32,000 nucleotides of DNA from Candidatus Electronema halotolerans (GTDB taxonomy: Bacteria; Desulfobacterota; Desulfobulbia; Desulfobulbales; Desulfobulbaceae). A program made the translations under genes and the position numbers. This document shows positions 4,784-30,484 of the stretch, piece by piece. The notes below the pieces were generated by a model. The model saw only the letters and a program-made list of their open reading frames with translations, ran no database searches and had not been told where the DNA came from. The DNA lies in the NCBI GenBank assembly GCA_942493095.1, contig OW818675.1, forward strand, positions 1,860,001 to 1,892,000, read 5' to 3'. The first letter of the stretch is position 1, and each line of letters opens with the position of its first letter.

Positions 4784-4854
4784 GCGATTCTGTTGAGAAA
4801 GGCGGGTGCAATGTCCGCCATTTCTGTTTTTTATCTGCTTTGGATATCCTTGAA

Positions 4855-7227: not shown

Positions 7228-7353
7228 TTTTTTGCCTTGATATGAGGAACACGGACAATTTTAACGGCAGCAGGATGTTCATGAGATATTCTGCGAAAAC
7301 CGCAACCATTATAGTAGCGAAAAAATTCTCGCAACTACCGACTTTCATTGACT

Positions 7354-7899
7354 ATGAAAATATATTTCCTGCTGCTCTGCTGCATCTTGCCAACAGCAAG
7401 CGTTCATGCCGAACAAATTTGCAAGCCTGATTCCATTCCCGCCTCAACCCCGGACAGCCAGCTTGTTGACAACGGCGACGGCACTGTCACGGACAGCGCA
7501 ACTGGCTTGATGTGGAAAAAATGTCTTGAAGGCCTTTCCGGGAATAATTGCGGAGACGGTTTTGAAGATTCCTTCACATGGCAGCAAGCTCTCCAAAAGC
7601 CCGATGCCGTCAATAATTCAGGAGGATTTGCAGGTTATAGAGACTGGAGATTGCCCAATATCAATGAACTTGTTTCTCTTGTTGAGGAGCAATGCAGTCT
7701 CCCCGCAATCAATCTGAACCTTTTTCCCAACACGCCAAGTTGGTATGTCTGGTCCGGGTCGCCGCATGCCCACAACTCAATCGCATGGAGCGTTAATTTT
7801 TTGGATGGCACTTCCGAGGGCTACAGCCGTAACATTCGCCACCCCGCAGTTCGGTTGGTGCGTGCGGCGGGAATTGAACAATCACGGAATTGTTTTTGA
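7354..7899 (+). CDS. small secreted DUF1566 domain protein
   Basis: Signal peptide MKIYFLLLCCILPTASVHA from ATG 7354 (track start 7348 is TTG). DUF1566 core: VTDSATGLMWKKC...FTWQQAL...GYRDWRLPNINELVSLV...LFPNTPSWYVWSGSP. Confidence 0.8.
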   Translation: MKIYFLLLCCILPTASVHAEQICKPDSIPASTPDSQLVDNGDGTVTDSATGLMWKKCLEGLSGNNCGDGFEDSFTWQQALQKPDAVNNSGGFAGYRDWRLPNINELVSLVEEQCSLPAINLNLFPNTPSWYVWSGSPHAHNSIAWSVNFLDGTSEGYSRNIRHPAVRLVRAAGIEQSRNCF

Positions 7900-12145: not shown

Positions 12146-13399
12146 ATGCTTATGAAATCCACACGATTCTGTCTCGTCTTTCTTGCCGCCTGCGTCCTGC
12201 TCCTTGCCGCCCCGCTCTCGGCCAAGGAGGACCACGCCCGGCCAGAAGCGGAGATTTACAGCAATCTTGAGACCTTTGCCAACATTCTGGACCTGTTGGA
12301 AAAGCATTATGTTGACAAGGTCAGCAGCAGTGAGCTGCTTCTCGGCGCGGTCAACGGGATGCTCGGCACCTTGGATCCGCATTCCGCCTATCTCTCCCCC
12401 AAGGATTTCAAAGAACTGCAAGAAGACACCAGCGGCAATTTCAGCGGCGTGGGCATTGAAGTGACGGTGCGGGACGGTGTCCTGACCGTGGTCTCGGCCA
12501 TTGCCGGAACCCCGGCCTTTGCTCAGGGCGTGAAAGCGGGCGACCGGGTTCTTGGCATCAATGGCCAGCCAGCCCAAGACATGACTCTGAACGAGGCAGT
12601 CCGGCTGCTGCGCGGCAAGATCGGCGACAAGGTGACGCTCTCGTTGAGCAGGGACGGGCAGGTGCAGGATATTGTTCTGACTCGCAGCCTGATTCCTCAG
12701 CATTCCATTGCCAGCACAGAACTGGAGCCGGGTCTGCTTCATGTCCAGATCAGCAGCTTTCAGTCGGCCACGGCCCGCGACTTTAAAGAGGCTCTGAGCA
12801 AGGCCGCGAAAAAGCATCCGCTCAAAGGGCTGCTTCTTGACCTGCGCAACAATCCGGGCGGCCTGCTGGAACAGGCGGTCAAGGTAGCTGATCTGTTCAT
12901 CAAAAAAGGGGTGCTGGTCTCGACCAAAGGCCGGGACAAGGAGCATGACATGCTCTTTGCGGCCCATCCGGGCGCAGAAAAATACAATGTGCCAATGGTG
13001 GTCTTGGTCAATGCCGGTTCAGCGAGTGCTGCGGAAATCGTCGCAGGTGCCCTGCAAGACCACAAGCGGGCACTGATTCTCGGCACCAAAACCTTTGGCA
13101 AAGGTTCGGTGCAGACTGTGGTGCCCCTGCCGGACGGAGCCGGGCTGCGCCTGACCACAGCCCGCTACTGCACGCCCAGCGGCAGGTCGATTCAGGAGAC
13201 CGGCATCAGCCCGGACATTGTCGTGCCCTTAGAAGAAAAAGGCAGTGCGGAGCGGAGCAGCATCCGCGAGAAGGACCTGCTCCATCATTTTGAAAACACA
13301 GATCAAAATGAACAGAAAAACAGCAGTCTGAAGAACGGGCTGCTGGCTGAGGACAATCAGCTCCAAGCTGCGCTCTTCATTCTCAAGCATCTCCGCTGA
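12146..13399 (+). CDS. S41 family carboxy-terminal processing peptidase
   Basis: Signal/anchor MLMKSTRFCLVFLAACVLLLAAPLSA, PDZ region GIEV...GTPAFAQGVKAGDRVLGING, and S41 core LDLRNNPGGLL...SASAAEIVAGALQD...TFGKGSVQ. Start at 12146 or 12152. Confidence 0.9.
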   Translation: MLMKSTRFCLVFLAACVLLLAAPLSAKEDHARPEAEIYSNLETFANILDLLEKHYVDKVSSSELLLGAVNGMLGTLDPHSAYLSPKDFKELQEDTSGNFSGVGIEVTVRDGVLTVVSAIAGTPAFAQGVKAGDRVLGINGQPAQDMTLNEAVRLLRGKIGDKVTLSLSRDGQVQDIVLTRSLIPQHSIASTELEPGLLHVQISSFQSATARDFKEALSKAAKKHPLKGLLLDLRNNPGGLLEQAVKVADLFIKKGVLVSTKGRDKEHDMLFAAHPGAEKYNVPMVVLVNAGSASAAEIVAGALQDHKRALILGTKTFGKGSVQTVVPLPDGAGLRLTTARYCTPSGRSIQETGISPDIVVPLEEKGSAERSSIREKDLLHHFENTDQNEQKNSSLKNGLLAEDNQLQAALFILKHLR

Positions 13400-14327
13400 C
13401 CGCTGTTCCGTGGCCTGCCGCTTTGGGATGGGCCTTGTCATAGACCCGGCTCAGATGCTCCATGTCCAAGTGGGTGTATATCTGGGTCGTGGAGAGGCTG
13501 GCGTGACCAAGCAGCTCCTGCACCATGCGCAGGTCCATGCCCATTTCCACTAAATGGGTGGCAAAGGAATGGCGCAGGGCATGCGGCGTGACCTGCGGCC
13601 CGATGCCAGCCCGCTGCCCATAGGCGGCCACCATGCGCTCGATGCTGCGCGCTGTCAGGCGGGTTCCCCGGCTGTTGAGAAACAGGGCCTCCTGTTCCGG
13701 CCTGTCGCCCCGCGTGATCCGGGCGGCAATAAGCTGTCCGCGCAGCGGCAGCCAAGCGCGGAGGGCTTCCCCAGCCGCCCTGCCAAAAGGCACCAGCCGC
13801 TCCTTGCCCCCCTTGCCCCTGATTTTGATCATGCCAGCGGCAAAATCCACGTCCGCCACATTGCCAGCCACTGCCTCGGAAACCCGCATTCCTGTGGCAT
13901 AAATCAGTTCCATCACCGCCCGATCCCGCTGCTGCAATGTATCCTGCGGCTTTGGCTCCTCCAGCAGGCTGAAGACTTCATCCACAGTCAGATAAACAGG
14001 AATATGCTTGGGCAGCTTTGGCCCGGCCAGCCCGGCTAAAGGATCAGCGGCAAGATGCTTCTCTCTGAGGCAGTGGCGGATGAACACGCGCAGCGAAGAC
14101 ATCTTGCGGGCCACTGACGAGGCTGAATGGCTCAAATAAAGCGAGGCGAGATGCTGCTGCAGATGCAGGGCCTTGAGGTCGGTAAGATCAATCCCGTTGC
14201 CGAGGCTGCGGAGGAAATCCTCAACATCCCGGCTGTAGCTCTTCACCGTGTTGGCTGAATAGCCCCGTTCAACTTTCAACCAGTCAATAAAGGTGGCCAC
14301 AGCAGGCCATGCCTCTTCTGGACGCAT
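13383..14327 (-). CDS. xerC: tyrosine recombinase XerC-like
   Basis: N-terminal SAM-like domain FIDWLKVERGYSANTVKSYSRDVEDFL. Catalytic region GMRVSE...RGKGGKERLVPFG...HALRHSFATHLVEMGMDLRMVQELLGHASLSTTQIYTHLDMEHLSRVYDKAHP is very close to the XerC C-terminus. Start chosen at MRPEEAW (GGTGA 5 nt upstream); the track ORF extends to 14384. Confidence 0.8.
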   Translation of the reverse strand: MRPEEAWPAVATFIDWLKVERGYSANTVKSYSRDVEDFLRSLGNGIDLTDLKALHLQQHLASLYLSHSASSVARKMSSLRVFIRHCLREKHLAADPLAGLAGPKLPKHIPVYLTVDEVFSLLEEPKPQDTLQQRDRAVMELIYATGMRVSEAVAGNVADVDFAAGMIKIRGKGGKERLVPFGRAAGEALRAWLPLRGQLIAARITRGDRPEQEALFLNSRGTRLTARSIERMVAAYGQRAGIGPQVTPHALRHSFATHLVEMGMDLRMVQELLGHASLSTTQIYTHLDMEHLSRVYDKAHPKAAGHGTAVSGDA

Positions 14328-14504
14328 TTTTTCACCATAAATGCCTGTTTTTGCGCATTTGACAAAATTGTTCATCGCGTTCATCTGGTGTTCATTCCGC
14401 TGCTGTTACAGTAACCATGCAACAAGCCGGAAGCGGCTCAATCGCTTTCGGTTGATCATGGCGTAACGTGCAACAGCGGGAAATGTCCCGCAGGAGAGGA
14501 GAGA

Positions 14505-14924
14505 ATGAAGAATGCAAGAACACAGGCAGGAAGATTTTTACTCGCAATGTCCGCAGCAGGCGTTTTGCTGGCAGGTGTCAGTCCGGCCTCAGCAGTGGAA
14601 ATCACCCCGCAGCTCCGGGCAGCGACGCTTCAGGTGATCCCTGAAGCCGGGGCAAACAACACGGCCATGCAACACTGCGGCTGTGACAGCAAAGAGGGCA
14701 TTGAGATGTATGTGCAGAACCTGATCAATGATGCGGAGAAACGCGGCCTGAACTGCCAGACTTCCTACCACATTCCAGCCTGCATCACCACCTACTGCTC
14801 AATTTGCAGGGGACATGCCGGATTAGTGGAGAACTGCATCCAAACAGGCATTGCCTATTTCACCAGCACGGCCAATTTCTGTTCGCAGCAGGCAAATGTC
14901 ACCGCTTATGCAGCTCCATTCTGA
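14505..14924 (+). CDS. secreted cysteine-rich hypothetical protein
   Basis: Strong SD (caGGAGAGGAGAgaATG), Sec-type signal peptide ...LLAGVSPASA/VE, and 9 Cys in the ~105-aa mature part. No family recognised. Confidence 0.6.
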   Translation: MKNARTQAGRFLLAMSAAGVLLAGVSPASAVEITPQLRAATLQVIPEAGANNTAMQHCGCDSKEGIEMYVQNLINDAEKRGLNCQTSYHIPACITTYCSICRGHAGLVENCIQTGIAYFTSTANFCSQQANVTAYAAPF

Positions 14925-14940
14925 AAATGGAATTTTTTTG

Positions 14941-14969
14941 CAGGACGTGAAACAGCTGTCCACGTCCTG
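14941..14969. repeat. perfect 9-bp inverted repeat (CAGGACGTG-11 nt-CACGTCCTG) between convergent genes
   Basis: Read directly from the sequence. Flanked by TTTTTTTG on the left and TAAAAAAG on the right. Confidence 0.5.
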
Positions 14970-15007
14970 TAAAAAAGCGATGCAAATTCGCCCGCATCAT
15001 GCGTGTG

Positions 15008-15700
15008 CTATTTCCTTATTTTTCTTTGCAAATTAACCTCCGCCTCCGAAGGCCGGACATAGAGTGGAACAGTCAGGGCTGGATCAGACAACTCACCTCG
15101 CGCCAAACGTTCAGCAGCAAGAAAACCAATCAGGGAGGCTTTGGGACTGCTCAAAGCAGGCGGAATGAGCCACAGGTCATCAATTGCCGTAAAAACAGCA
15201 TGATATTCAGCCAGCCCCGGCCCGGCGACCGCCGCAGGAGCTTTTATCCGTTGCGCCAGCAATTCTGGGCGGACAGCCTCTGCCGGACTGATCTGGCCGC
15301 TGCCATCATAGCAGGCCGCATAGACTTCCTGCTTGCGGGCATCCAACAGGCACCAAAGGGGCATGTCGAGAAGCGGACAGGACAGGGCAACTGCATCCAA
15401 GGTCGGCACAGCCAGCAGCGGTTTGCCAGTGGCAAAGACAATCCCCTTGGCCGCTGCCAGACCAATGCGCAGGCCAGTGAAGGAGCCGGGGCCAATGCTG
15501 ACCGCGACTGCATCCACGTCCTGCCATGTCAGGCCCGCCGCCTTCATTATCCATTCGACCGAGCCGAGAAGCTGGCGGGAATGCGTTTGTTCCGGCTGGG
15601 CAATGGCCTCGGCCAGCAGTTTGCCGTTCGCCACACCGCCGCGAGTCAGGGCGACACTGCCGCAGCCAGCAGCGGTTTCAAGGGAAAGGATGAGGGGCAT
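15008..15700 (-). CDS. tsaB: tRNA N6-threonylcarbamoyladenosine biosynthesis protein TsaB
   Basis: [18 protein letters not shown]...[20 protein letters not shown] is the YeaZ/TsaB signature. Its ATG at 15700 shares one nt with the rseP stop (TGATG). Confidence 0.85.
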
Positions 15701-16791
15701 CAGGATGCGCCCAGCCACCGCTGCACCAGCCGGGCAATGTCATTGTAAAAAACAAAAATCATCAGCGCGCCGAGCAGGGCTATGCCGACCTGCTGCGCCC
15801 GAATCATGGCTGACTCGGCCAGCGGTTTGCGGCGGATGGCTTCAATAGTGAGAAAGGTGAGGTGGCCGCCGTCCAGAACCGGGATGGGCAGCAGATTGAG
15901 GATGCCAAGATTGACCGAGAGCAGGCCGGTGAAATGCACTAAATGCAGCCAGCCAGCCCGGAACTGCTCACCAGTGATTTCGGCAATGCGGATCGGGCCG
16001 CCCAGCTCAGAAGCCGGAATCACTTGCTGAATCATCTTGACCAAGCCCATGATCGTGACCACGATCAGATTCCACGTATAGACAAAGGCCAGACTGACTG
16101 ATTCTGGCAGGGAAATCTTGGTGTAGGTCAGTTCCTCGCTCCGGGTCATGCCGAGCAGATAACGCGCTTCGCCCGTCTCCTCGCCAAAAATATCTTTCAC
16201 CTTGTCCAAGACTGGAACCGCTGCAAGCGTCACTGGTTCCCTATCCCGCTGCACGACCAGCTCCAGCGGCTTGCCGCCAGAATCTCGGACAGCCTCGGAA
16301 ACCTGCTGCCACGAGGTCATCTCCTGCCCGTTGATCGACAGCACCACATCGCCCGGCTTCACCCCGGCTTGTTCCGCAGGTGAACCGGAATTGACCTGGC
16401 CGATCTTGGTGCTGTCAACCAGATCGGGCCGTCCAGCGAGCAGGAACATGAGCCAGAAGACCATCAGGGCAAAAAGCAGATTGAAGAGCGGGCCGCCAAA
16501 GACTATCCAGAAGCGCTGGCCCACGCTTTTATGGGAAAAGGAGACGGCTTTGTCTTCTTCGGCAATTTCCTCGCCCGGCTGCTCGCCGTACATTTTCACA
16601 TAGCCGCCCAAAGGAAAGGCGGAGATCAGGTATTCGGTCTCACCCCACTTTCTGCCGATGAGCTTATTGCCAAAGCCAAGGGAAAATTTCAGCACCCGCA
16701 CACCAAAGAGCTTGGCAAAGAGAAAATGGCCCAGCTCATGCACAAAAATCAGGATGCCGAGAATGACTATGAAAGAGATGATGGCGTTCAT
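15700..16791 (-). CDS. rseP: RIP (site-2) zinc metalloprotease RseP
   Basis: HELGHF (HExxH) in TM1, a PDZ domain ([21 protein letters not shown]), and C-terminal [12 protein letters not shown]. Confidence 0.9.
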
Positions 16792-16807
16792 TGCGTTTAT
16801 TGTAATT

Positions 16808-17155
16808 TCACGAAAGAATGGTTCTTCTTTCCAAGGATTCGGCTATCATTGCTGTGACTAAGGTGTTCATGCTCACTCCTTCCTGCCGGGCGCAGGCGGC
16901 AAGTTTTGCATACAAACTTTTTGGAAGACGCTGAACCAGACGGCTGCTGCTCTCCGGCTCAGGGATAGGATCATTAAATTCTTCAGCCGTTGCCAGCCAT
17001 GAATGAACTGCGTCCAAGCCATTCATGACAGCTTCTTCCAAGGTTTCTCCATCTGCAATGCAGCCTGGCAAATCTGGGAATAAAATCAAAAAACCACCGC
17101 CTTCCTCTGCTGTCAGCGGACGAACTTCAAAAGGATAGTTGACTTTTCTGCCCAT
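16808..17155 (-). CDS. hicB: HicB-family type II antitoxin
   Basis: YPFEVRPLTAEEGGGFLILFPDLPGCIADGETLEEAVMNGLDAVHSWL is the HicB/UPF0150 N-terminal fold. The C-terminal part is RHH-like (RLPKSLYAKLAACARQEGVSMNTLVTAMIAESL). ATG 17155 lies 4 nt after the hicA stop. Confidence 0.8.
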   Translation of the reverse strand: MGRKVNYPFEVRPLTAEEGGGFLILFPDLPGCIADGETLEEAVMNGLDAVHSWLATAEEFNDPIPEPESSSRLVQRLPKSLYAKLAACARQEGVSMNTLVTAMIAESLERRTILS

Positions 17156-17159
17156 AAAA

Positions 17160-17420
17160 TTATGCCTGATCGCCTTCCCCTTCAATCAGAAAGCGAAGGA
17201 ATTTTTTGATATAAATTGGTTTGATGGGCCGATGCGCTGGAACAGTGATTTTTGCTTCATTTGGATGACGGAAGGTGACGTGACTTGTGCCGGGTTGTCT
17301 CCATGCAATACCAAATCTTTTGGCAAGATATTGTAGCTCATCAATCTGCCAGTCCTGCGGATTATTCTGCATCCTGAGCAGCATCTTTTCAATTTTACTC
17401 ATGATGCTGGAAGATTTCAA
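17160..17420 (-). CDS. hicA: HicA-family mRNA interferase toxin
   Basis: GTSHVTFRHPNEAKITVPAHRPIKPIYIKKFL matches the HicA/YcfA core (G-S-H...vP.H). TTG 17420 is preceded by AGGAG with a 4-nt spacer. The alternative ATG 17402 has no SD. Confidence 0.75.
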   Translation of the reverse strand: MKSSSIMSKIEKMLLRMQNNPQDWQIDELQYLAKRFGIAWRQPGTSHVTFRHPNEAKITVPAHRPIKPIYIKKFLRFLIEGEGDQA

Positions 17421-17450
17421 GCAGCTCCTGCGCTTAGATGGAGAAACGCT

Positions 17451-19193
17451 CTACAAACGGCCCAGCAGAGGCGAATTGCTGACAACCGCATCAAATTCGC
17501 GGCGGAAAGCCGGGTACCTTTTGTACTCCTGATTTCTTTTCAGTTCAAGAAATGCAGCCGCTTTGTCCTGCTGTTCATGCAGGATCAGGCATTCCATATA
17601 TCCGCCCAAAGCTTCCGCACCTCTGGCATATCCTTTCCGATACTGGTTGGAGACAATATGCTCGGCACGGTCGGAGGAAATTCGTTCAACAAACTTGAGC
17701 CATTGTTTTTGCTGCGAATCTGAAACAGCGGTTTGCAGCAGCCGCTTCTTGATTTCATCAGCGATAAAGCCATTGCCGTCGCGCCTGCGCATGTATCTTT
17801 CAAACAGAGCCTGAATCGTTTTGGCCTCAGCGTTTCCTTTGCACAGAACAAACAGGATGCTGACATAAACAGCACCTGTCGTTCTTTTCTCGTTTGACCA
17901 GCCAATTGCCGCCTCTTGATCAATTGCTGCATAGCTTTCCTGTAATTGGCCCAACAGCAGCATGATTTTGATGCGCAGGAAAAAATCCGACTGGCTGAAA
18001 AAATGAGGCTGTTTGACCTTGGCAGGCATTGATTCCAGAAAGGAAATAGCCTTGTCCAATTCTGCCTCGCGGACTTGTTGCTTGTCCGCCTCCCGCAGCA
18101 GATCAGCTAAGTACTCCTCCTGCGGATATGAAAAAAATTGTTCCCGTTTGCCCTGCAAAACAAGAATGTTGTCGCCTGTCTGCTCGCCTGCTGCGTACAA
18201 CTGCGCTGCCGCATAAGCCCGCAGACTATCATAGGGCATGGCACGCAATGCCTCCTGCGCAGCGGCAGCCAGTTCGCCCCATGCCTCCGCTTCCCGCAGT
18301 CGATCCAACCAATAGAGATAACCGGTCGGATTGTTGCGTTGACGCACTGCCGCCGCCAGCCCTTGCAGGCCGTCTAACCGCTGCACCGCCTCCAGATGCA
18401 GAAGCACAGCCCGGCTGCTGTCGATGGAGCGCAGCTCTTTTTGCAATTTTTTCAGGAAATCGTCCCAATCTGCCAGTTCACCGGGCCGTGCGTTAAACAC
18501 ATCTTTAAGTGAGGGTAAAATTTCATTTACCGGATCATACCCAAGGCCAAAAAGTTGCCTTCCAAAAGGATGTTGTTCTGCCTCTGTTTTCCGCTCTGCT
18601 TCCATTGCCACACACATCAGTTTGGGCCGCTCTGCTTCAGAGGAAGTTTCATAGACACAACGGCAATACCGGGCCAAGGTCTCCCGCCAGTTGATATCTA
18701 TCTCGTTATATTCAATTGAGTAATCCAACCCTCTGCCGTGCAGAGACAGATCAATTAGTTGCTGATAGGCCTTTTGGGCAAGCTCCAGCTTCCCATCAAG
18801 AAAGAGCCTGTCCGCCTCAGCAAACAAGGCTTCGAGAGACTCCTGCTGTTCTTTGGACATGCTGGGGAATTCTTCATCATAATAATAATCATCTTCTTCA
18901 TAACGCTCTTCGTAATACGAGCCATCTTCAACAGATTTCTGCCAATCCGCAATATCCTCAAGGAGCTTTTCTTTTCTGGCTAAGATGCTGCTATCTTCTG
19001 GCGCAGCTATTTCCTCAAAATCAACAGGATGAGAAATGATTGACAGTCTTTCGAGGAATGACGTTCGTTCCGCAGCAGGAACATCGAGAGCTGCCTGACA
19101 AAGCAAGTCAATTAGCTCGGCTTTGGTCAGTTTGGCGCAATGTTTTTTGATCTTCTCAAGATAGGGCTTCAGAGCCAATGTTTCTGTAGTCAT
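17451..19193 (-). CDS. 580-aa hypothetical protein (all-helical, no TM, no recognised domain)
   Basis: Long uninterrupted ORF with protein-like composition. ATG lies 6 nt after the dxr stop. Contains an acidic, Tyr-rich linker YYEERYEEDDYYYDEEF. The antisense ORFs over it are short and low-complexity. Confidence 0.7.
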   Translation of the reverse strand: MTTETLALKPYLEKIKKHCAKLTKAELIDLLCQAALDVPAAERTSFLERLSIISHPVDFEEIAAPEDSSILARKEKLLEDIADWQKSVEDGSYYEERYEEDDYYYDEEFPSMSKEQQESLEALFAEADRLFLDGKLELAQKAYQQLIDLSLHGRGLDYSIEYNEIDINWRETLARYCRCVYETSSEAERPKLMCVAMEAERKTEAEQHPFGRQLFGLGYDPVNEILPSLKDVFNARPGELADWDDFLKKLQKELRSIDSSRAVLLHLEAVQRLDGLQGLAAAVRQRNNPTGYLYWLDRLREAEAWGELAAAAQEALRAMPYDSLRAYAAAQLYAAGEQTGDNILVLQGKREQFFSYPQEEYLADLLREADKQQVREAELDKAISFLESMPAKVKQPHFFSQSDFFLRIKIMLLLGQLQESYAAIDQEAAIGWSNEKRTTGAVYVSILFVLCKGNAEAKTIQALFERYMRRRDGNGFIADEIKKRLLQTAVSDSQQKQWLKFVERISSDRAEHIVSNQYRKGYARGAEALGGYMECLILHEQQDKAAAFLELKRNQEYKRYPAFRREFDAVVSNSPLLGRL

Positions 19194-19199
19194 TTTGTT

Positions 19200-20360
19200 T
19201 TAGTGCAATTCTTTTATCTCTTGCTGCGTCAGTTCCCGCGCCTTTTGATCCGCAGCCAGAATCGCGGCCAGATCAAGATCATCACCCGCAGCAAACTGCG
19301 TCAGCACTGATGCTGCCACTTTTGCAATATCTGTGAAGCCGATTTCCTGTTCCAGAAAGGCAGCAACCGCAATTTCGTTGGCAGCATTGAGCACCGCAGG
19401 TTTGACTCCGCCTTCCTTGAGCACGGCAAAGGCCAAATTCAGGGCCGGAAAACGCTCGTAATCCGGTTTCTCGAAACTGAGATTGCCGCAGGCGGAAAGA
19501 CTGAGCGGCGACAGGCCAAGGTTGAGCCGTTCAGGATAGGACAGGGCATAAGCAATGGGAATGCGCATGTCAGGAATGCCGAGCTGGGCCATCACTGAGC
19601 CGTCAATGTACTCAACCAAGGAATGGACAATAGACTGCGGATGCACCACCACCCGGATTCTCTCTGCTGGAATGTCAAAAAGCCAGCAGGCCTCGATCAC
19701 CTCCAGCCCCTTGTTCATCAGTGTGGCGGAATCAATGGAAATCTTCCGGCCCATGTTCCAGTTGGGATGGGCCAGAGCTTGGTCAGGCGTGACCTGCGCA
19801 AGCTGCTCTTTCGCCAAAGTGCGGAACGGCCCGCCGGAAGCAGTGAGAATAAGCATGGCCACGTCGTCGCGGCGGCCTGCTTCAAGGGCTTGAAAAATCG
19901 CGGAATGCTCGGAATCTATCGGCAGCAGGGCGACTTTGTGTTTTTGCACAGCCTCCATGACCAAGCGTCCGGCCATGACCAAGGTTTCCTTGTTGGCCAA
20001 GCCAATGTCCTTGCCTGCGGCAATGGCCGCCAAGGTCGGCAGCAGGCCAACAGAGCCGACCATTGCTGAAACCACCATTGCGGCGGATGGCACGGTGGCA
20101 ATCTTGCTGCTGCCCTCTTCGCCGTGGAAAATTTTATCCTGCCAGACCGCAGGCAGCAGCTCGGCCAACTGCGCTGCGGCTTGTTCGTCTGCCACAGAAA
20201 CGCATTCTGGCTGAAACTCCAGCACCTGCTTGGCCAGCTCCGTGACATTGCGTCCGGCAGCCAGCCCGACGATGTGGAAACGGTCAGGAAAGGCCCGCAC
20301 TACATTGAGGACATTGTTGCCGATGGAACCGGTCGAGCCGAGCAGAGAAAGATTTTTCAT
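19200..20360 (-). CDS. dxr: 1-deoxy-D-xylulose 5-phosphate reductoisomerase
   Basis: [18 protein letters not shown] (NADPH site), [18 protein letters not shown] and [23 protein letters not shown] are canonical Dxr motifs. Confidence 0.95.
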
Positions 20361-21154
20361 GCAAAAAATCCTGCTGTGATGAGCAGATGCAGCAAGGGCG
20401 CGGCAAAAAGCAGGCTGTCGGTCCGGTCGAGCAGGCCGCCATGCCCGCCGAGCATGGTGCCGGAATCTTTGCGGCTGGAGCCGCGCTTGATCACTGATTC
20501 TGTCAAATCACCGACTATGCCTGCGACAGTGAGCAGCACAGCGGCAAGGGCGATTTTCAGGCTGCTGATTTCCGGCAGGAGAAAACAGGCAAGCGCAACA
20601 GCCGCTCCGCTTGCGGCTACTATTCCGCCAATCGCGCCGTTGATCGTTTTGCCCGGACTGACTGATGCACAAAGTTTGCGTTTGCCAAAGGCCCGGCCTG
20701 AGTAATAGGCTCCGGTGTCAGAACCAGCGGTGATGACGGTGAGAAGAAGCAACCATCTGCTGCCTTCCGGCTGACCGTGCAGGAGAATGATAAAGCCGCA
20801 GCAAAGGGAGATGTAGAATACGGAAAAACCGGCGTGGAGAAGAAAGTCCAAAGGGGCGGCAAAGCGGCTGTAAAAAAAGATGACCAGCAGGGCCACGCCC
20901 AGCAGAGCGAGATAGACACCAGTCAGCACTGCCGCTGCTGTGCCGACAGAGGCGGCCAAAACTGGCAGCAGACAGGCGGCAATGGCCAGCGTCCAGGTGC
21001 CGGAGCCGGGAGTCTTGACTGCCATGCGGAAGAACTCGCGCAGGGCTGCTGCGGCTGCGACTGTCATCACCAGCCAGAAAAGAAATGGCGACGCGAAAAA
21101 GAGCAGTAGCACCCACAGCGCAGCCATGAGCAGACCGGGGATTATGCGTTCCAT
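20357..21154 (-). CDS. cdsA: phosphatidate cytidylyltransferase
   Basis: Multi-TM protein with the C-terminal CTP-transferase signature [34 protein letters not shown]. Start set at MERIIPGLL (21154). The track ORF's extra 41 codons are AT-rich insert DNA. Confidence 0.85.
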
Positions 21155-21185
21155 GTTATTGCCTGTTCGCAGCGTTGCGACGGTT

Positions 21186-21386
21186 TCATACAAGAACTTT
21201 TCCTTTTGCAAGGATTTCTTTAGTGAATGAGTTGTCTGTCTCGATGAACTCTTCCCATTCACGTTTGGTATAGACAATCAAGTCCATCGGAACTTTAGTT
21301 TTCAAAATATCGAAATATTTTTTCACTAATGAATAATTTTCACTTCGTTCGGCGAAACTCTTTGGCAGTTCGTCCTTATTCAGCAA
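21186..21386 (-). pseudogene. nucleotidyltransferase (Pol-beta/MNT-like) C-terminal remnant
   Basis: ...YFDILKTKVPMDLIVYTKREWEEFIETDNSFTKEILAKGKVLV resembles the C-terminal half of small MNT-type nucleotidyltransferases. The N-terminal GS...D.D catalytic motif is absent. It has only a TTG start and overlaps the upstream ORF by 11 nt in another frame. Confidence 0.4.
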
Positions 21387-21603
21387 GGTCTGATTCTAAT
21401 TCAGAAATTAACTCTGATGTTTCTTTTAGAGAAGCAGCGGCCTGTTCAACCTTTTTATCTAAAGATGTTCTTGACCTTCTAAGTTCATCAAATATATAAT
21501 AAAGTTCAGGCCCAGGCAGCAACGGAATAGAACGTAACAACGCTCTTGTCATCTGTTTAAGCAATTTTCCTGTTATGATCTTTTTGTTTTCAATATCAGA
21601 CAT
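21376..21603 (-). CDS. 75-aa hypothetical helical protein
   Basis: ATG lies 5 nt after the uppS stop, with GGAGAG 13 nt upstream. AT-rich (23 of 60 nt G+C in the one line I counted). The C-terminal half is coiled-coil-like (KKVEQAAASLKETSELISELESDLAE). No family recognised. Confidence 0.45.
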   Translation of the reverse strand: MSDIENKKIITGKLLKQMTRALLRSIPLLPGPELYYIFDELRRSRTSLDKKVEQAAASLKETSELISELESDLAE

Positions 21604-21608
21604 TATGA

Positions 21609-22345
<737 letters not shown>

Positions 22346-22349
<4 letters not shown>

Positions 22350-22903
22350 ACTTCCATGACCTCTTTTTCTTTGCCAGCGGCTATTGAATCGATCTCTTTG
22401 ACAAAATCGTCGGTCAGCTTCTGCACCTCATCCTGCTGCCGGGCCATCTCGTCTTCCGAGATTTCCTTGTCATTCTTCTGCGTTTTCAGCGTGTCATTGG
22501 CCTCGCGGCGGTCGTTGCGGATGCCGACTTTGAACTCTTCCGCAATCTTCTTGACCTGCTTGACCAGCTCCTTGCGCCGCTCCTCAGTGAGCTGGGGAAT
22601 GGGCAGGCGGATGATCTTGCCGTCGCTGGTCGGAGTCAGGCCAATGTCTGAACCGAGAATTGCCTTTTCAATAATCGGCAGCATCTGCGGGTCCCACGGC
22701 TGAATGGAAATCAAGCGGGGTTCCGGGATGGTCAGGGCAGCCACTTGATTGAGGGGCATTTTGGAGCCGTAGGCATCCACCTTGATGCTGTCCAACAGGG
22801 ACAGCGAGGCCCGGCCTGTGCGGATTTTGGTCAGGTCACGCTTGAGAGCCTCAATCCGGGCCGCCATTTTTAATTCAGCTTCATCAACAACAGGATTTGC
22901 CAT
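22346..22903 (-). CDS. frr: ribosome recycling factor
   Basis: Full-length RRF-like sequence (...LKRDLTKIRTGRASLSLLDSIKVDAYGS..PLNQVA...LTEERRKELVKQVKK...). SD GGAGA lies 7 nt upstream of ATG 22903. Confidence 0.95.
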
Positions 22904-23534
22904 GATCTTTCTCCATATACGCTGAGATGGATGAGCGGACTATTGTCAAAAAAATGCTCATAAGTTTTTCAATCTCATTCAAATAGTATTCATCAATGTC
23001 AATACAGGCTTTTTTTTCTGACAATTTTATAAATTTCCAAGCAGTTCCTGTGGTGACGCAGCCATACACATCACGCAGCGAATTTCCTTCCCGTTTATTG
23101 TATAGATCAGCCGCATACATTGTCGCAATGCACTGCCCCAATCCTTGAACGATATTCTCTTTTTTCGCCTCAACTATTGCAACCACAGGAGCTGTGATAT
23201 AAAATTGCTCTGAATTCAGACTGATGATGTAATCACATTGCCCATCCAGTTCCTTTGCTTCATCTACCGTGAATGTTGAGCCTGAAAAAAGACTTATCGT
23301 GTTATTTAATGTCCGGCGCAGCTCCGCCATGATTGGCGCGATAATCCATTCTGATCTGGATTTTTCTGTATTGATGGATAACGCTAAGGGAGCAAATTCG
23401 TCCAAAGTGGTCTTTAAATAATCGCTTATTGACACCGCCTCAATGCTCGAACTTGAAAATAAATGATCAGTTTCAATAACATCAATGCCAAGTTTCTGCT
23501 TCACATCTTTTAAGGTGAATTTGCTGTAGGCCAT
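22884..23534 (-). CDS. PD-(D/E)xK nuclease-fold protein, HsdR-N-terminal-domain-like (paralogue B)
   Basis: Motif series: E62 (SEWIIAPI), D101 (CDYIIS), E122-A-K124 (VAIVEAKKEN), Q134 (GLGQC), then VTTGTAWKFIKL. Collinear with the upstream paralogue. AT-rich. The last 20 nt overlap frr. Confidence 0.75.
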   Translation of the reverse strand: MAYSKFTLKDVKQKLGIDVIETDHLFSSSSIEAVSISDYLKTTLDEFAPLALSINTEKSRSEWIIAPIMAELRRTLNNTISLFSGSTFTVDEAKELDGQCDYIISLNSEQFYITAPVVAIVEAKKENIVQGLGQCIATMYAADLYNKREGNSLRDVYGCVTTGTAWKFIKLSEKKACIDIDEYYLNEIEKLMSIFLTIVRSSISAYMEKDHGKSCC

Positions 23535-23543
23535 TTCAGAAAA

Positions 23544-24152
23544 TCACTGCGTTATGTTTTTCTTAGCCTCAATGACAATCCAATTGAGCACATCAAACAA
23601 CTGCTGCAAATTTTCCGCTGCTGAATAGGAAACAACTTCCATTGTCAGAATATTCCTGCACAGCTTGCCAAACTGCCAAAAGTTGCCTGTGGTCACAATG
23701 CCGAATATTTCCTGCTCCATAGTATTGTTAAATTTCTGAGCAGCAATCATTTCAGCCAGCACCTGCGCCCACCCTTCGTTAAAATTTTCTTTCTTCGCTT
23801 CAGCGATGCAAACAATTGGATTTTTAAAGGTTGTTCCGATATCTGACGCAGGGGCAATGATAAAATCAGGCACACCAACCAAGCCTTCTTCTTCCGCAAC
23901 ATCAAATCTGACATGTGACCAGACAGGCAGCCCGTTGTTCTTGGCAACTATGTTCAATATCGGAAATATGATTGATTCACATATCGCATTCTCACTGACA
24001 TAACTTCGTTTTGTTCGTAGATTATCGCTGATAAGATCAAATAAGACCTTGTCAACGACAAGGCTTGTTTCTTGCACGAAAGACTGCTCAACAAGTTTGA
24101 TTTTAAATTTGGTCGCTACTTGTTCATAAGTAGCAAAACTTCCATAAGGCAT
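23544..24152 (-). CDS. PD-(D/E)xK nuclease-fold protein, HsdR-N-terminal-domain-like (paralogue A)
   Basis: Numbered from MPYGSF (ATG 24152): E59 (CESIIFPI), D96 (PDFIIA), E118-A-K120 (VCIAEAKKEN), Q130 (WAQV), VTTGNFWQFGKL. The track start 24185 is a TTG that overlaps pyrH. The N-terminus MPYGSF..YEQV parallels MAYSKF..KDV of paralogue B. Confidence 0.75.
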   Translation of the reverse strand: MPYGSFATYEQVATKFKIKLVEQSFVQETSLVVDKVLFDLISDNLRTKRSYVSENAICESIIFPILNIVAKNNGLPVWSHVRFDVAEEEGLVGVPDFIIAPASDIGTTFKNPIVCIAEAKKENFNEGWAQVLAEMIAAQKFNNTMEQEIFGIVTTGNFWQFGKLCRNILTMEVVSYSAAENLQQLFDVLNWIVIEAKKNITQ

Positions 24153-24174
24153 ATCTACGCCATCAAAGTGAGAT

Positions 24175-24882
24175 TCACGCCACAATCAGCGTCCCCATCT
24201 GCTCGCCTGCAGCAGCACGGGCAATGTTGCCTTGCTTCTTCATGTTGAAGACCAGCACTGGCAGGTTGTTGTCACGGGCAAGAGAAATGCCGGCAGCATC
24301 CATGACCCGAAGCTGATCCTGCAGCACCTTGGTGTAGGTGAGGCGGTCAAAGCGGACAGCATTTGTATCCTTTTCCGGGTCGCGGTCATACACGCCATCC
24401 ACCCGCGTGGCCTTCATCATCACATCCGCGCTGATCTCCAAGGCGCGCAGCACGCCGCCGGTGTCAGTGGTGAAATAGGGATTGCCCGTGCCTGCGGCAA
24501 AGATCACCGCCCTGCCCTGCTCCAGATGCGCCAGTGCCCCGGCGCGGGTGTATGGCTCGCAGACATTCTGCATGGCAATGGCCGAGAGCACCCGGCACGG
24601 CACTCCGACCCGCTCCAGCCCGTCCTGCATGGCCAAGGCATTAAGCACGGTGGCCAACATGCCCATGTTGTCGGCCACAGCCCGGTTCATGCCGCCCGCA
24701 GCTCCGGCCACGCCCCGGAAAATATTGCCCGCGCCGATCACCAGCCCGATCTGCACCCCTTGCTCATGCACGGTCTTGATTTCCTGAGCGACAAACTGAA
24801 TCATGGCCGGGCTGATGCCGTAAGCCCCATCGCCCATCAGGGCCTCGCCGCTGATCTTGAGAAGGATGCGCTGATATGACAT
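24175..24882 (-). CDS. pyrH: UMP kinase
   Basis: [13 protein letters not shown]...[12 protein letters not shown]...[22 protein letters not shown] are canonical PyrH motifs. Confidence 0.95.
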
Positions 24883-24936: not shown

Positions 24937-25548
24937 TTACGCGCCGAGCTGGAAGCGGCTGAAACGCTTGATGGAAATGTTCTCGCCCATCTTGACGATC
25001 AGCTCATTGAGCAGGTCTTGAATCGAGACATCAGGATTCTTGACAAACTTCTGCTCCAGCAGGCAGTTTTCAGCCACAAACTTGTCGATTTTGCCATCAA
25101 CAATCTTGGCAACTATGTTCTCAGGCTTGCTTTTGCCAGTTTTTTCAGCTTCCTCTTTGACCTGACTGAGATAGACTTCCCGCTCGCGGGCAATCATTTC
25201 TGCTGGCATGTCCTCCCGGCGGACGGCCACCGGATTGGTGGCAGCGATGTGCATGGCCACATCTTTGGCAAAGGCCTTGAACTGATCGGTCTTGGCGACA
25301 AAGTCAGTTTCGCAGCCAACCTCGACCATCACGCCCAGCTTGCTGTTGCTGTGAATATAGCATTCAACCACACCCTCGGAAGTGGCGCGGTCGGCCCGCT
25401 TGGCCGCCACGGCCAGACCCTTCTGGCGCAGGTAGTCAACCGCCTTCTCCATATCACCCTGGGTTTCCGTCAGGGCCTTTTTGCAGTCCATCATGCCTGC
25501 ATTGGTCGCATCGCGCAGCTCTTTGACCATCTGGCTGGTGATTTGCAT
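24937..25548 (-). CDS. tsf: translation elongation factor Ts (short form)
   Basis: MQITSQMVKELRDATNAGMMDCKKALTET (UBA-like N-terminus). SD AAGGAG upstream of ATG 25548. The track ORF's first 21 codons were discarded. Confidence 0.9.
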   Translation of the reverse strand: MQITSQMVKELRDATNAGMMDCKKALTETQGDMEKAVDYLRQKGLAVAAKRADRATSEGVVECYIHSNSKLGVMVEVGCETDFVAKTDQFKAFAKDVAMHIAATNPVAVRREDMPAEMIAREREVYLSQVKEEAEKTGKSKPENIVAKIVDGKIDKFVAENCLLEQKFVKNPDVSIQDLLNELIVKMGENISIKRFSRFQLGA

Positions 25549-25667
25549 TCGTATCTCCTTTCTCTGCAAGAAAAAATAATCAGCCGGGCTGACCCGGCAG
25601 AATTGTCGCAAAAAGAAGGGGCCTGCCTAAGCCCCTTTCTGAATCGCCGTCCTCAGCCTTGTTCCGT

Positions 25668-26435
25668 TCAGACTTCGGTTGGCTCCACAAAAGCCTTGGC
25701 ACTCATCTCGGCTTCCAGCTCGTCAATATTGGTTGGAACCGCCTCGCCTGCCGCTCCCCGGCCTTCCAAGATGGCATCGGCAATCTGGGAGGTGATCAGC
25801 TTCACGGCCCGGATTGCGTCGTCATTGCCAGGAATAATGTAATCAACGCCGTCCGGGTTGCAGTTGCTGTCAGTCAGGGCGACCACCGGAATGCCGAGCT
25901 TCTTGGCCTCATCCACAGCAATGTCCTCCTTGCGGGGATCGATGACCAACAGCACATCCGGCAGCTTGCGCATTTCTTTGATGCCGCCGACATTGCGCTC
26001 CAGCTTGACCCGCTCCTTCTCCATCTTAAGAATTTCATGCTTGGGAAAGCGGTTGATGCTGCCGTCCTTCTGCATGGCCTCAATCCGCTTCAGCCGATCC
26101 ACGGAATTCTTGATGGTCTGAAAATTGGTCATCATGCCGCCCAGCCAGCGGTGATTGACATAGAACATGCCGCAGCGCTGGGCCTGCTCTTTAATCACTG
26201 CTTGGCTTTGCCGCTTGGTGCCGACAAAGAGAATGGTGCCGCCATTGGCCGCCACGTCGGTCAGGTAGGCGCAGGCTTTGCGGAACATGCGCATGGTGGC
26301 ATCCAAGTTGATAATATGGATGCCGTTGCGCGGCCCATAGATGTAGGGCTTCATTTTCGGGTTCCAGCGTCTGGTCTGATGTCCGAAATGCAGACCGGCC
26401 TCAAGCATCTGCCGCATGGTGACTGTCACTGCCAT
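25668..26435 (-). CDS. rpsB: 30S ribosomal protein S2
   Basis: [34 protein letters not shown]..., with SD AAGGAG upstream of ATG 26435. Confidence 0.95.
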
Positions 26436-29514: not shown

Positions 29515-29882
29515 CTTCAGGGCTTCGGCCCTTGCCGACGCAGTCCCTCTGCCTGCCGGGCAAATGCGTGCCTGCGCCCGGCGCAGGAAAAAATGAAAAG
29601 GAATGGCAGCATCTTTCTGGATCGTTGCATGGCTATGGACTCCTTGGCCTTGTTGCAGCAGTCTGGCTTCTGGTGAAAATTATACCGTAACAGCCAGAAG
29701 AAGAAAGCGCAAATAAGACGCTTTTCTGACATTTTTCTGTTTCCATCGTAATATTTTCCGAACATTCATCTTTTCAAGTATGGCCCTGACAAGAGGCCAG
29801 ATGCAATTGGGCTGGGCAAAAAAATCGTCGGGCTGTCTGCTGTCTTGGCTGAATTTGAGAACCTTTTTTTCAGGAGGAGAAA

Positions 29883-30083
29883 ATGATGCGGACTCAAGCC
29901 ATGCCGGAACAAAACGAAAGCGCAGTGGAAAAAGCTCTGGAAAAGGCGGCCAAAATAATCTGCACCCTGAAGTGCGGACGCTGCCCGATGCAGGAGGAGA
30001 ATTTTCCCGGCTGTCCCTGTGTCTGCCATGAAGATATTGTCCCGTGGCAGTGCTGGATATCCTATCTGCGGGCAACAGCATGA
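29883..30083 (+). CDS. 66-aa cysteine-rich small protein
   Basis: Strong SD (cAGGAGGAGaaaATG). 8 Cys clustered as CTLKCGRCP...PGCPCVCHEDIVPWQCW. Its stop TGA overlaps ATG 30080 of the next ORF (ATGA). Confidence 0.5.
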   Translation: MMRTQAMPEQNESAVEKALEKAAKIICTLKCGRCPMQEENFPGCPCVCHEDIVPWQCWISYLRATA

Positions 30084-30484
30084 GCAATTTCACAATCAGG
30101 AGGCGCAGGAAACGAATGAGTGATTTTTTGCAGCTCCGGCTGCTGCCGGGCGGTCAGGCGGTTCCGGCCAGCCCGGAAGGCAAGTTGAACTGCTGGGAAT
30201 TCAGAAAGTGCGGTCGCGAGCCGGGCGGCGCAAACGCCTCTCATGCCGGAACCTGTCCGGCGGCAGTTGAAGCGCGGGCGGACGGCATTCACAGCGGCAT
30301 GAACGGCGGACGCTGCTGCTGGGCTGTGACCGCCGCCCTGCGGCAGCAGGGTATCTGTTTGGACCAGTGTGGCGGCGACTGTGATGGCTGTGATTTTTAT
30401 CGCTTGGTCAGGAACGAGGAGGAGCAGCGGCTGGTGCTCAGGCATATCCGGCCTGCCGCCCTGCTCAGAAGCAAGATGTTCTGA
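30080..30484 (+). CDS. stand-alone two-CW-domain-like protein
   Basis: NCWEFRKCGREPGG...GTCPA...NGGRCCWAV...C..C.FYRLV has two Cys-Trp dipeptides in the arrangement I recall for the two-CW sensor domain family. The start is either ATG 30080 (ATGA coupling) or ATG 30116 (AGGAGG 12 nt upstream). Confidence 0.6.
   Translation: MSNFTIRRRRKRMSDFLQLRLLPGGQAVPASPEGKLNCWEFRKCGREPGGANASHAGTCPAAVEARADGIHSGMNGGRCCWAVTAALRQQGICLDQCGGDCDGCDFYRLVRNEEEQRLVLRHIRPAALLRSKMF

Follow-up and report, generated by a model that had tools for sequence, protein, structure and literature searches.

Accessory genes at three junctions of the rpsB-rseP core-gene cluster in the cable bacterium genus Electronema

Integration hotspots are usually pictured between transcription units. 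In Pseudomonas aeruginosa, core defence hotspots are reportedly fixed positions flanked by core genes that hold diverse defence-type cargo (PMC10250203). Toxin-antitoxin (TA) islets between core genes, analysed within the accessory spot framework of Oliveira et al. 2017, have been described as spots of high turnover in which modules erode and are proposed to spread through homologous recombination in the core genes on either side (Belot et al. 2026, PMC13617665). An MNT-HEPN module was found inside the lysine operon of T. thermophilus HB8 and is absent in HB27 (2009, PMC2701414), and Uma2 (DUF820) proteins are regarded as likely solo toxins that occur as cassettes of paralogues in cyanobacteria (PMC2701414; PMC3424549). 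When newly acquired genes lie downstream of native ones, the native promoter drives their expression, and in E. coli insertions within pre-existing operons are much rarer than additions at operon ends (PMC1480536). The locus studied here is a 32,000-nt stretch of DNA from Candidatus Electronema halotolerans, hereafter the window, which encodes rpsB-tsf-pyrH-frr-uppS-cdsA-dxr-rseP on the minus strand and carries extra genes (cargo) at the pyrH-frr, uppS-cdsA and dxr-rseP junctions, designated slots 1, 2 and 3. This species, a cable bacterium of fresh or brackish water, belongs to the Desulfobulbaceae, and its genus comprises uncultured, multicellular, electrically conductive bacteria. At title and abstract level, the papers listed on cable bacteria and TA systems or mobile elements included none on this cluster.

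The three slots are probably long-standing permissive spots inside the Electronema core-gene string, in which small accessory modules (TA pairs, stand-alone nucleases, methyltransferases and ORFans) would have been repeatedly gained, swapped gene by gene, truncated and deleted. Pfam searches of the window proteins and the sequence itself confirmed the identities and canonical order of the housekeeping genes and the presence of extra genes at the three junctions, both of which had been reported in an earlier, sequence-only reading of the window. The distances given in that reading were exact: the cargo began 5 nt after the uppS stop codon and 6 nt after the dxr stop codon, hicB ended 16 nt before the rseP ATG, and the second cargo gene of slot 1 (PD2) overlapped frr by 20 nt. 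The first cargo gene of slot 1 (PD1) started 22 nt after the pyrH stop codon. Spacers in the window ranged from -20 nt to 48 nt with all cluster and cargo genes on the same strand, and both frr/uppS and cdsA/dxr overlapped by 4 nt (ATGA). A composition check agreed with the earlier description of the inserts as AT-richer: their GC content was 0.36-0.48, compared to approximately 0.57 for the host genes, and the GC content at third codon positions (GC3) was 0.25-0.51 in cargo genes, against 0.62-0.77 in the housekeeping genes. By composition, the cargo is foreign. The dxr-orf580-hicA-hicB-rseP section was found at 100% identity in a separate Logan assembly (L081), so this arrangement is not an assembly artefact.

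The junctions were compared across genomes by locating the slots with tblastn in 6-8 Electronema loci per junction, a gap of >300 nt being taken as a filled junction, against a non-Electronema baseline of 40-69 loci. A search of genome contigs with uppS returned distant relatives only among the matches listed, and these served as the baseline; a search of metagenome contigs with cdsA returned about eight close relatives, mostly as contigs of 1-2 kb. Outside Electronema the median gap was 17 nt at pyrH-frr and 13 nt at both uppS-cdsA and dxr-rseP. Slot 1 was filled in 3/40 non-Electronema and 7/7 Electronema loci (Fisher p 2e-6), slot 2 in 1/69 and 8/8 (p 4e-10) and slot 3 in 0/47 and 5/6 (p 2e-6), p-values which are descriptive only because the Electronema genomes are kin. 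The cluster was contiguous in Desulforhopalus (L002), Desulfatitalea (L003), other Desulfobacterota (L004, L011 and L058) and the closer Desulfobulbaceae L096 and L098, and a contiguous cluster is the ancestral state. Four control junctions (rpsB-tsf, tsf-pyrH, frr-uppS and cdsA-dxr) measured 100 nt or less in all Electronema and were never filled. The same three junctions held cargo throughout the Electronema genomes examined, with the exception of dxr-rseP in the closest relative, L082 (Table 1). Each interval was bounded by the same two core-gene families while its accessory content varied, which is the definition of a genomic spot. The proposal that the three junctions form a recurrent landing pad was upheld by this synteny comparison, with differing cargo in eight genomes and contiguous outgroups.

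Table 1. Content of the three slots in the window and in seven related Electronema genomes
Genome	Slot 1 (pyrH-frr)	Slot 2 (uppS-cdsA)	Slot 3 (dxr-rseP)
Window	PD1 + PD2	75-aa ORF + MNT stub	orf580 + hicAB
L082 (closest relative, dxr 91%)	PD1 (98% identity, same place) + 306-aa Excalibur	RpiB + MBL hydrolase	empty, 28 nt
L084	radical SAM + GNAT + Excalibur	184-aa ORF	orf579
JM (L085)	HNH	methyltransferase	hicA-hicB-orf570
V4 (L086)	MazE-PIN	restriction endonuclease (REase)-like, 349 aa	DUF4365
JC (L087)	junction not on contig	MNT + 168 aa	orf557 + 434 aa
E. aureum (L090)	110 aa	131 aa	orf579
PJ (L146)	methyltransferase + PD-DExK (78% identity to PD1)	MNT + 168 aa	orf564 + hicAB

About 20 unrelated cargo families were counted over the eight genomes. 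In the gene tables 39/40 cargo genes lay on the strand of the cluster (binomial test), which extends to the relatives the co-orientation described for the window; the exception was a doubtful open reading frame (ORF) in a repeat-rich spacer of PJ. A fragment, L093, carried the 168-aa gene between uppS and cdsA without the MNT gene. The possibility that one methyltransferase occupied two slots was rejected, as the slot 1 enzyme of PJ and the slot 2 enzyme of JM were unrelated. The sequence-only reading had characterised the cargo as TA or defence-type. This is correct for part of it, which consists of TA or nuclease genes, but RpiB, an MBL hydrolase, GNAT, radical SAM, methyltransferases and unknowns were also present. 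PADLOC gave only weak partial matches for the cargo of the relatives (pVip-like radical SAM, PtuB-like HNH and Aga_REase-like DUF4365), their NCBIfam matches were sub-threshold, and the only strong PADLOC match of the window cargo was that of PD1 and PD2 to an accessory profile labelled 'PD_DExK, CAS-associated'. Overall, the cargo is a varied accessory collection in which TA and nuclease genes are enriched.

The breakpoints were precise to the gene. Similarity between genomes ended directly past the upstream stop codon and returned 12-25 nt before the next ATG, such that conservation upstream of frr, cdsA and rseP was limited to 12-25 nt. This stretch corresponded to the ribosome-binding region, for example GGAGAAAGATC before frr. 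Because nothing further upstream is conserved, the essential genes frr, cdsA and rseP must be transcribed through the cargo or from within it.

A swap of a single gene was seen in slot 1. Homology between the window and L082 ran through PD1, ended at 23542 in the window and restarted at 22915; between these breakpoints L082 carried a gene of 306 amino acids with an Excalibur domain, which was also present in L084. As homology breaks and resumes at these positions, PD2 represents a single-gene replacement relative to the Excalibur gene of L082 and L084. PD2 had no stop codon of its own. Its final approximately 10 codons and stop were read from the ribosome-binding site and 5' coding sequence of the host frr, and the conserved GGAGAAAGATC ahead of the frr ATG fell within the PD2 reading frame.

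Slot 2 of the window contained two remnants. The 75-aa ORF showed 83% identity over 52 aa to a full-length gene of 131 aa in the same slot of Ca. Electronema aureum (L090, 7616-8011), and had no match in the protein family libraries searched. The MNT stub aligned to positions ~35-100, the C-terminal two-thirds, of a 100-aa NTP_transf_2 protein in the same slot of JC, and an intact copy of 108 aa was present in slot 2 of PJ. The stub lacked the catalytic N-terminus (GSYAEG...DSDIDL) and had no Pfam match, so that it did not qualify as an intact NTP_transf_2 protein and is a remnant, not a functional member. Two dying genes were fused here by a deletion.

Together with the PD2 gene fused to host sequence and the empty slot 3 of L082, these truncations are signs of erosion, and they bear on the earlier suggestion that placement in an essential operon would make the cargo hard to lose. 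That suggestion failed: L082 had cleanly lost orf580, leaving a 28-nt dxr-rseP junction, slot 2 of the window held only remnants, and PD2 had replaced the Excalibur gene. TA addiction would provide short-term retention only.

Slot 3 contained orf580, which encodes an all-alpha TPR-like protein (AlphaFold2 pLDDT 85) whose fold matched generic TPR only. Just 44 homologues were found, all from cable bacteria, Desulfobulbaceae or Desulfococcaceae. Those of L084, JM, JC, PJ and E. aureum were located at dxr-rseP with 59-71% identity, making orf580 a resident of slot 3 in 6/8 Electronema genomes, and its divergence kept step with that of the housekeeping genes. The sequence-only reading had included the 580-aa ORF in the foreign cargo; to judge from its distribution and divergence, it is instead a long-term resident of the genus specific to cable bacteria, not a recent arrival. 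In Electrothrix AW1 a homologue lies elsewhere (L091, 8001-10590), and after it come a co-oriented PDDEXK_2 (Rpn-like) nuclease gene and pyrF.

The hicA and hicB genes of slot 3 were separated by 4 nt and form an intact pair, a predicted type II TA system. Homologues of hicA with 71-81% identity were found in slot 3 of JM and PJ, where the pair was kept in both, with hicAB on the opposite side of the orf580 homologue in JM relative to the window and PJ. A promoter-like site matching at 10/12 positions (17420-17392) was considered as a hicAB promoter and dismissed, because its -10 element falls inside the conserved hicA coding start. In PJ, a direct repeat of 90 nt (16797-16886 and 17535-17624; 94% identity) of the 3' end of orf564 flanks hicA-hicB. 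It was the sole insertion footprint in any locus and could stem from single-crossover integration of a circular piece or from local duplication. The dxr-orf564 spacer of PJ (378 nt) contained short tandem and inverted repeats (48-58 nt, 74-77% identity; 14917-15159) as well as the doubtful antisense ORF of 108 aa, and may be a small repeat element.

A neighbour-joining tree of cdsA and dxr separated a clade of the window, L082 and L084 from a clade of JM, PJ, JC, E. aureum and V4. Homologues of orf580, hicAB, the MNT gene and the PD-(D/E)xK genes were present in both clades, so the slots were already open in the ancestor of the genus. This raises the alternative that the extra genes have long belonged to the operon as vertically inherited, lineage-specific members and became functionally co-opted, and that the genomes differ only through differential loss. 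The residence of orf580 described above agrees with it, as do the 70-81% identities of hicAB, MNT and PD-(D/E)xK homologues between the clades, which resemble those of rseP, cdsA and dxr. A sliding comparison of the window with L082 likewise showed an even identity of ~0.9-0.95 along the cluster, with PD1 no different from its flanks. However, the slots of V4, JM, L084 and L082 held unrelated genes (MazE-PIN, HNH, radical SAM with GNAT, RpiB with MBL, REase-like and DUF4365), two unrelated methyltransferases were also present, hicAB changed sides of orf580 in JM, and the GC3 of the cargo stayed far below that of the host. Members of the PD1 family also share 60-80% identity across phyla (Thioploca, Marithrix and Ectothiorhodospiraceae), which indicates horizontal spread. 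We consider co-option with differential loss unlikely; the present pattern mixes old residents with later gains, swaps and losses.

PD1 and PD2 showed 31% identity to each other and are paralogues. By sequence and structural model they belong to the PD-(D/E)xK nuclease superfamily and are predicted nucleases. P95-D96, E118 and K120 were near-invariant in an alignment of the PD1 family, the AlphaFold2 model of PD1 (pLDDT 91) had a mixed alpha/beta core, and Foldseek gave weak matches (TM 0.3-0.5) to the DrdV nuclease domain, lambda exonuclease and Cas4. A sequence search of the PDB with PD1 and orf580 profiles returned nothing useful. The GC3 of PD1 was 0.43. Its close homologues (60-80% identity) were found in cable bacteria, Thioploca, Marithrix, Ca. 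Venteria and Ectothiorhodospiraceae, that is, in large sulfur gammaproteobacteria besides the cable bacteria, and remote homologues (28-36% identity) on plasmids of filamentous cyanobacteria. A full HMMER search placed 2,340 clusters at 50% identity in the family, nearly all of them stand-alone proteins of ~200 aa, and no relatives of PD1 were found in the phage and viral collections INPHARED and IMG/VR. As stand-alone PD-(D/E)xK proteins of ~200 aa that form tandem paralogues, are common in filamentous bacteria and show cross-phylum transfer, PD1 and PD2 resemble Uma2, and PD1 relatives adjoin Uma2 genes on cyanobacterial plasmids. They differ in that neither matched any Pfam model at E < 0.01, the Uma2 model included, and they form a separate, uncurated family of ~2,300 clusters at 50% identity.

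On plasmid p3 of Planktothrix agardhii (L148, 2778-4603), DUF1156 and DUF499 enclose three small nuclease genes in the same orientation, namely a gene of ~200 aa annotated 'type I restriction endonuclease', one for Uma2 and a PD1-like gene. A gap of 7 nt separates the first from Uma2, Uma2 and the PD1-like gene overlap by 11 nt, and the trio presents the same picture of intercalation as the window. It also recalls the account of Uma2 proteins as likely solo toxins in cassettes of paralogues (PMC2701414). In Allocoleopsis (L147), a PD1-like gene and Uma2 adjoin an apparently split cas3. The Planktothrix arrangement suits an explanation in which the stand-alone nuclease genes (PD-(D/E)xK, HNH, REase-like and DUF4365) behave like free-standing homing endonucleases: they would cut empty junctions, repair from a filled allele would copy them in and other cargo would be captured at the breaks. 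Nuclease-fold genes occupied slot 1 in 4/7 genomes (window, L082, JM and PJ), V4 had an RNase-type PIN toxin in slot 1 and nuclease-fold genes in slots 2 and 3, and the breadth of the PD1 family, mostly stand-alone across phyla, is what such genes would show. The seg and mob genes of T4 likewise sit between conserved genes. Homing is nevertheless very unlikely in our judgement. TA pairs, methyltransferases and metabolic-type genes filled slots with no nuclease (slot 1 of L084 and E. aureum, and most of slot 2), PD1 homologues were not bound to one target (that of Electrothrix Rat3 was not near frr), the family was absent from the viral collections, and cleavage activity is a prediction.

Under the favoured reading of permissive spots, gain and exchange would proceed with no dedicated recombinase, by homologous recombination in the conserved flanks after DNA uptake, to which illegitimate recombination and deletion would add. 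A site-specific system, integron-like or Xer-dependent, which inserts cassettes at att sites of the three junctions, would leave different traces. Searches for flanking repeats, target-site duplications and att-like sites at the window inserts gave chance-level matches only. The cassette ends of six relatives had no repeats beyond one inverted match of 18 nt at chance level in JC, PJ had the 90-nt repeat, and no motif was common to the ends in the window and the six other loci. The spacers of 5-30 nt are too small for attC-like sites, and tRNA and Rfam scans of the window were both empty. The absence of a recombinase directly beside the inserts had been reported before and holds, and in seven relatives the cluster had no integrase-family gene within 10 kb; the report had, however, overlooked a XerC/XerD-family tyrosine recombinase gene in the window, 2.4 kb from the nearest insert. 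Its product passed the cut-off of the general 'tyrosine recombinase' subfamily of NCBIfam (303 bits against 279), narrowly missed the equivalog cut-offs for XerC and XerD, and scored far below integron integrase models. As no such gene lies near the cluster in the relatives, it is probably a housekeeping dimer-resolution enzyme, which it also resembles. The Xer gene, the cassette-like swaps of one gene each and the repeat around hicAB of PJ, the footprint expected of single-crossover integration of a circle, would fit site-specific insertion, which on the whole we hold to be extremely improbable.

A further, speculative possibility is that Electronema loads promoterless cassettes of 1-2 genes at stop-codon-proximal sites between translationally uncoupled genes of an essential cluster, as a recombinase-free "operon cassette array", perhaps seeded by PD-(D/E)xK/HNH homing endonucleases or by small circles integrating by short homology, as the 90-nt repeat of PJ hints. 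We regard this as quite doubtful. If it were true, PD1-type nucleases would be widespread operon-intercalating selfish genes of cable bacteria, large sulfur bacteria and filamentous cyanobacteria.

The parsimonious and likely mode of cargo expression is read-through from the host cluster, to judge from gene spacing and the short conserved stretches upstream of the host genes. The cluster with its cargo has the features expected of a single operon, lying on one strand with short spacers and with cargo ends free of terminator-like sites. No terminator-like hairpin was found at those ends, in agreement with the earlier observation, the total of 21 such hairpins lying within the expectation from shuffling (15.0 +/- 4.5), and the cargo leaves no room for promoters or terminators of its own. 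As the cargo is apparently promoterless and terminatorless, the downstream host genes must be transcribed through it. Because frr, uppS, cdsA, dxr and rseP are essential, only inserts that are co-oriented, terminator-free and tightly spaced would survive; purifying selection on the downstream essential genes would act as a survivorship filter, under which the cargo would be transcribed by read-through. With cargo 2-30 nt past the host stop codon and often lacking its own Shine-Dalgarno sequence, translation would probably occur partly by coupling. Constitutive co-expression of the cargo with the host genes, as suggested earlier, is plausible.

Several points weigh against the reading of permissive spots with repeated turnover. 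The region contained 15 promoter-like matches where 7.1 +/- 2.5 were expected by shuffling, twice the mean, and the AT-rich cargo could itself supply promoters; co-transcription is presumed from the spacing and the absence of upstream conservation. Because both clades share several cargo families, part of the pattern goes back to old vertical inheritance and differential loss and not to repeated insertion. The window and L082 showed no recombination tracts and nothing pointing to a tract of recent transfer, which leaves exchange by homologous recombination without direct support from this pair. The sample comprised eight genomes of one genus, and the reading gives no reason for the slots having opened in Electronema but not in its sister genus, Electrothrix.

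In comparison with the systems outlined above, the principle of accessory islets between core genes is known and the setting is unusual. As in accessory spots and TA islets, one core-gene pair holds differing content among relatives, and TA modules lie alone between core genes, without mobile-element genes, with fast turnover, pseudogenisation and deletion (Oliveira et al. 2017; Belot et al. 2026, PMC13617665). Unlike in those islets, there are three consecutive spots within one tight, co-directional string of essential genes, the spacers are 2-30 nt, and the cargo is strictly co-oriented and apparently without promoters and terminators. The T. thermophilus case (PMC2701414) shares a TA-type module inside a housekeeping operon that is polymorphic between close relatives, and also the MNT type, a degraded member of which fills slot 2 of the window; it was a single event in one operon, whereas here the slots were reused by many unrelated families across the genus. 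Integrons resemble the locus in their promoterless, co-oriented single-gene cassettes, upstream promoter and varying content. They differ in that no IntI, attI or attC was found here, with no nearby integron integrase, no repeats at the cassette ends and no room for recombination sites, and in that the array is interleaved with essential genes. The hotspots of P. aeruginosa reportedly hold multi-gene defence systems on large islands between transcription units, compared to the 1-3 small, partly defence-like genes of each slot. What is unusual is the combination of three consecutive slots, ~20 unrelated families genus-wide, strict co-orientation and near-zero spacers.

Operon-intercalated TA modules were not confined to this cluster, as two cases were seen in Electrothrix. 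In Electrothrix scaldis (L089, 3928-4718), a HEPN (NTase_sub_bind) gene and an MNT gene lie between pheS and pheT, and are absent there in Rat3 (L088). In Rat3 (13934-14472), RelB/YafQ is located inside a string of transporter and two-component genes, where E. scaldis has a different gene. The ribosomal-protein/rpoA operon was clean in PJ and E. aureum.

An essential cluster of Electronema would on this evidence act as a hotspot of gene turnover in which the gain, swap and decay of foreign genes are tolerated genus-wide. It offers a natural test of the load of foreign transcription and translation that such a cluster can bear, and a test case for whether TA and nuclease genes exploit read-through and whether small PD-(D/E)xK genes are themselves mobile. 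Two uncurated families are flagged, the PD-(D/E)xK family (~2,300 clusters at 50%) and the TPR-like protein specific to cable bacteria. Should the slots be merely permissive spots under purifying selection, they would add a neat but incremental case to known pangenome dynamics. The features of the cluster in the window are listed in Table 2.

Table 2. Positions of the cluster genes, the cargo and the recombinase gene in the window
Feature	Position	Strand	Description	Match or comparison
rpsB	25668-26435	-		Pfam
tsf	24937-25548	-		Pfam
pyrH	24175-24882	-	UMP kinase, upstream border of slot 1	Pfam AA_kinase 6.4e-31
PD1	23544-24152	-	first cargo gene of slot 1; stand-alone PD-(D/E)xK nuclease-fold protein, 202 aa	PADLOC PDLC01472 'PD_DExK' 7.6e-48
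PD2	22884-23534	-	second cargo gene of slot 1; paralogue of PD1	PADLOC PDLC01472 'PD_DExK' 9e-51
frr	22346-22903	-	ribosome recycling factor, downstream border of slot 1	Pfam RRF 1.4e-68
uppS	21609-22349	-	upstream border of slot 2	Pfam Prenyltransf 3.3e-84
75-aa ORF	21376-21603	-	slot 2 cargo; truncated 5' part of a 131-aa gene family	GC3 0.25
MNT stub	21186-21386	-	slot 2 cargo; remnant of an MNT-type nucleotidyltransferase, C-terminal 66 aa only	79% identity to JC homologue
cdsA	20357-21154	-	downstream border of slot 2	Pfam CTP_transf_1 1.8e-52
dxr	19200-20360	-	upstream border of slot 3	three DXP reductoisomerase domains; 100% identity to the Ca. Electronema halotolerans protein
orf580	17451-19193	-	slot 3 cargo; all-alpha TPR-like protein, 580 aa	44 homologues, all in cable bacteria, Desulfobulbaceae or Desulfococcaceae
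hicA	17160-17402	-	slot 3 cargo; predicted toxin, HicAB type II TA	Pfam HicA_toxin 27.0 bits, equal to the cut-off (27.0)
hicB	16808-17155	-	slot 3 cargo; predicted antitoxin, C-terminal ribbon-helix-helix (RHH)	Pfam HicB_lk_antitox 1e-09 (39 bits), HicB 2.6e-05, Arc/RHH
rseP	15700-16791	-	site-2 protease, downstream border of slot 3	Pfam Peptidase_M50 + PDZ
tsaB	15008-15718	-	next gene after rseP	TsaD family match
Xer gene	13383-14384	-	XerC/XerD-family tyrosine recombinase	NCBIfam 'tyrosine recombinase' subfamily

The pyrH gene showed 93-98% identity to those of the Electronema relatives. Two GC-rich hairpins, each followed by a T-run, were present in the rpsB-tsf spacer and just beyond it (25583-25637, minus strand). 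They were the sole convincing terminator- or attenuator-like structures of the cluster, and rpsB-tsf was free of cargo in every Electronema genome. The genes upstream of rpsB varied among all the Electronema genomes examined, so the left flank of the cluster is often rearranged too. In the window an ORF of 137 aa with a low GC3 (0.46) and no Pfam match is located at 29680-30093 (minus strand), beyond a PAS-GGDEF-EAL gene. On the plus strand, two low-GC genes at 4840-7227 and 7348-7899 (GC3 0.45 and 0.52) encode products with an Lcl C-terminal domain. They are flanked by a HlyD-like gene and by a ParA-like/ftsE-ftsX-M23-ctpA string of normal composition, and the pair (4840-7899) may be another foreign block.

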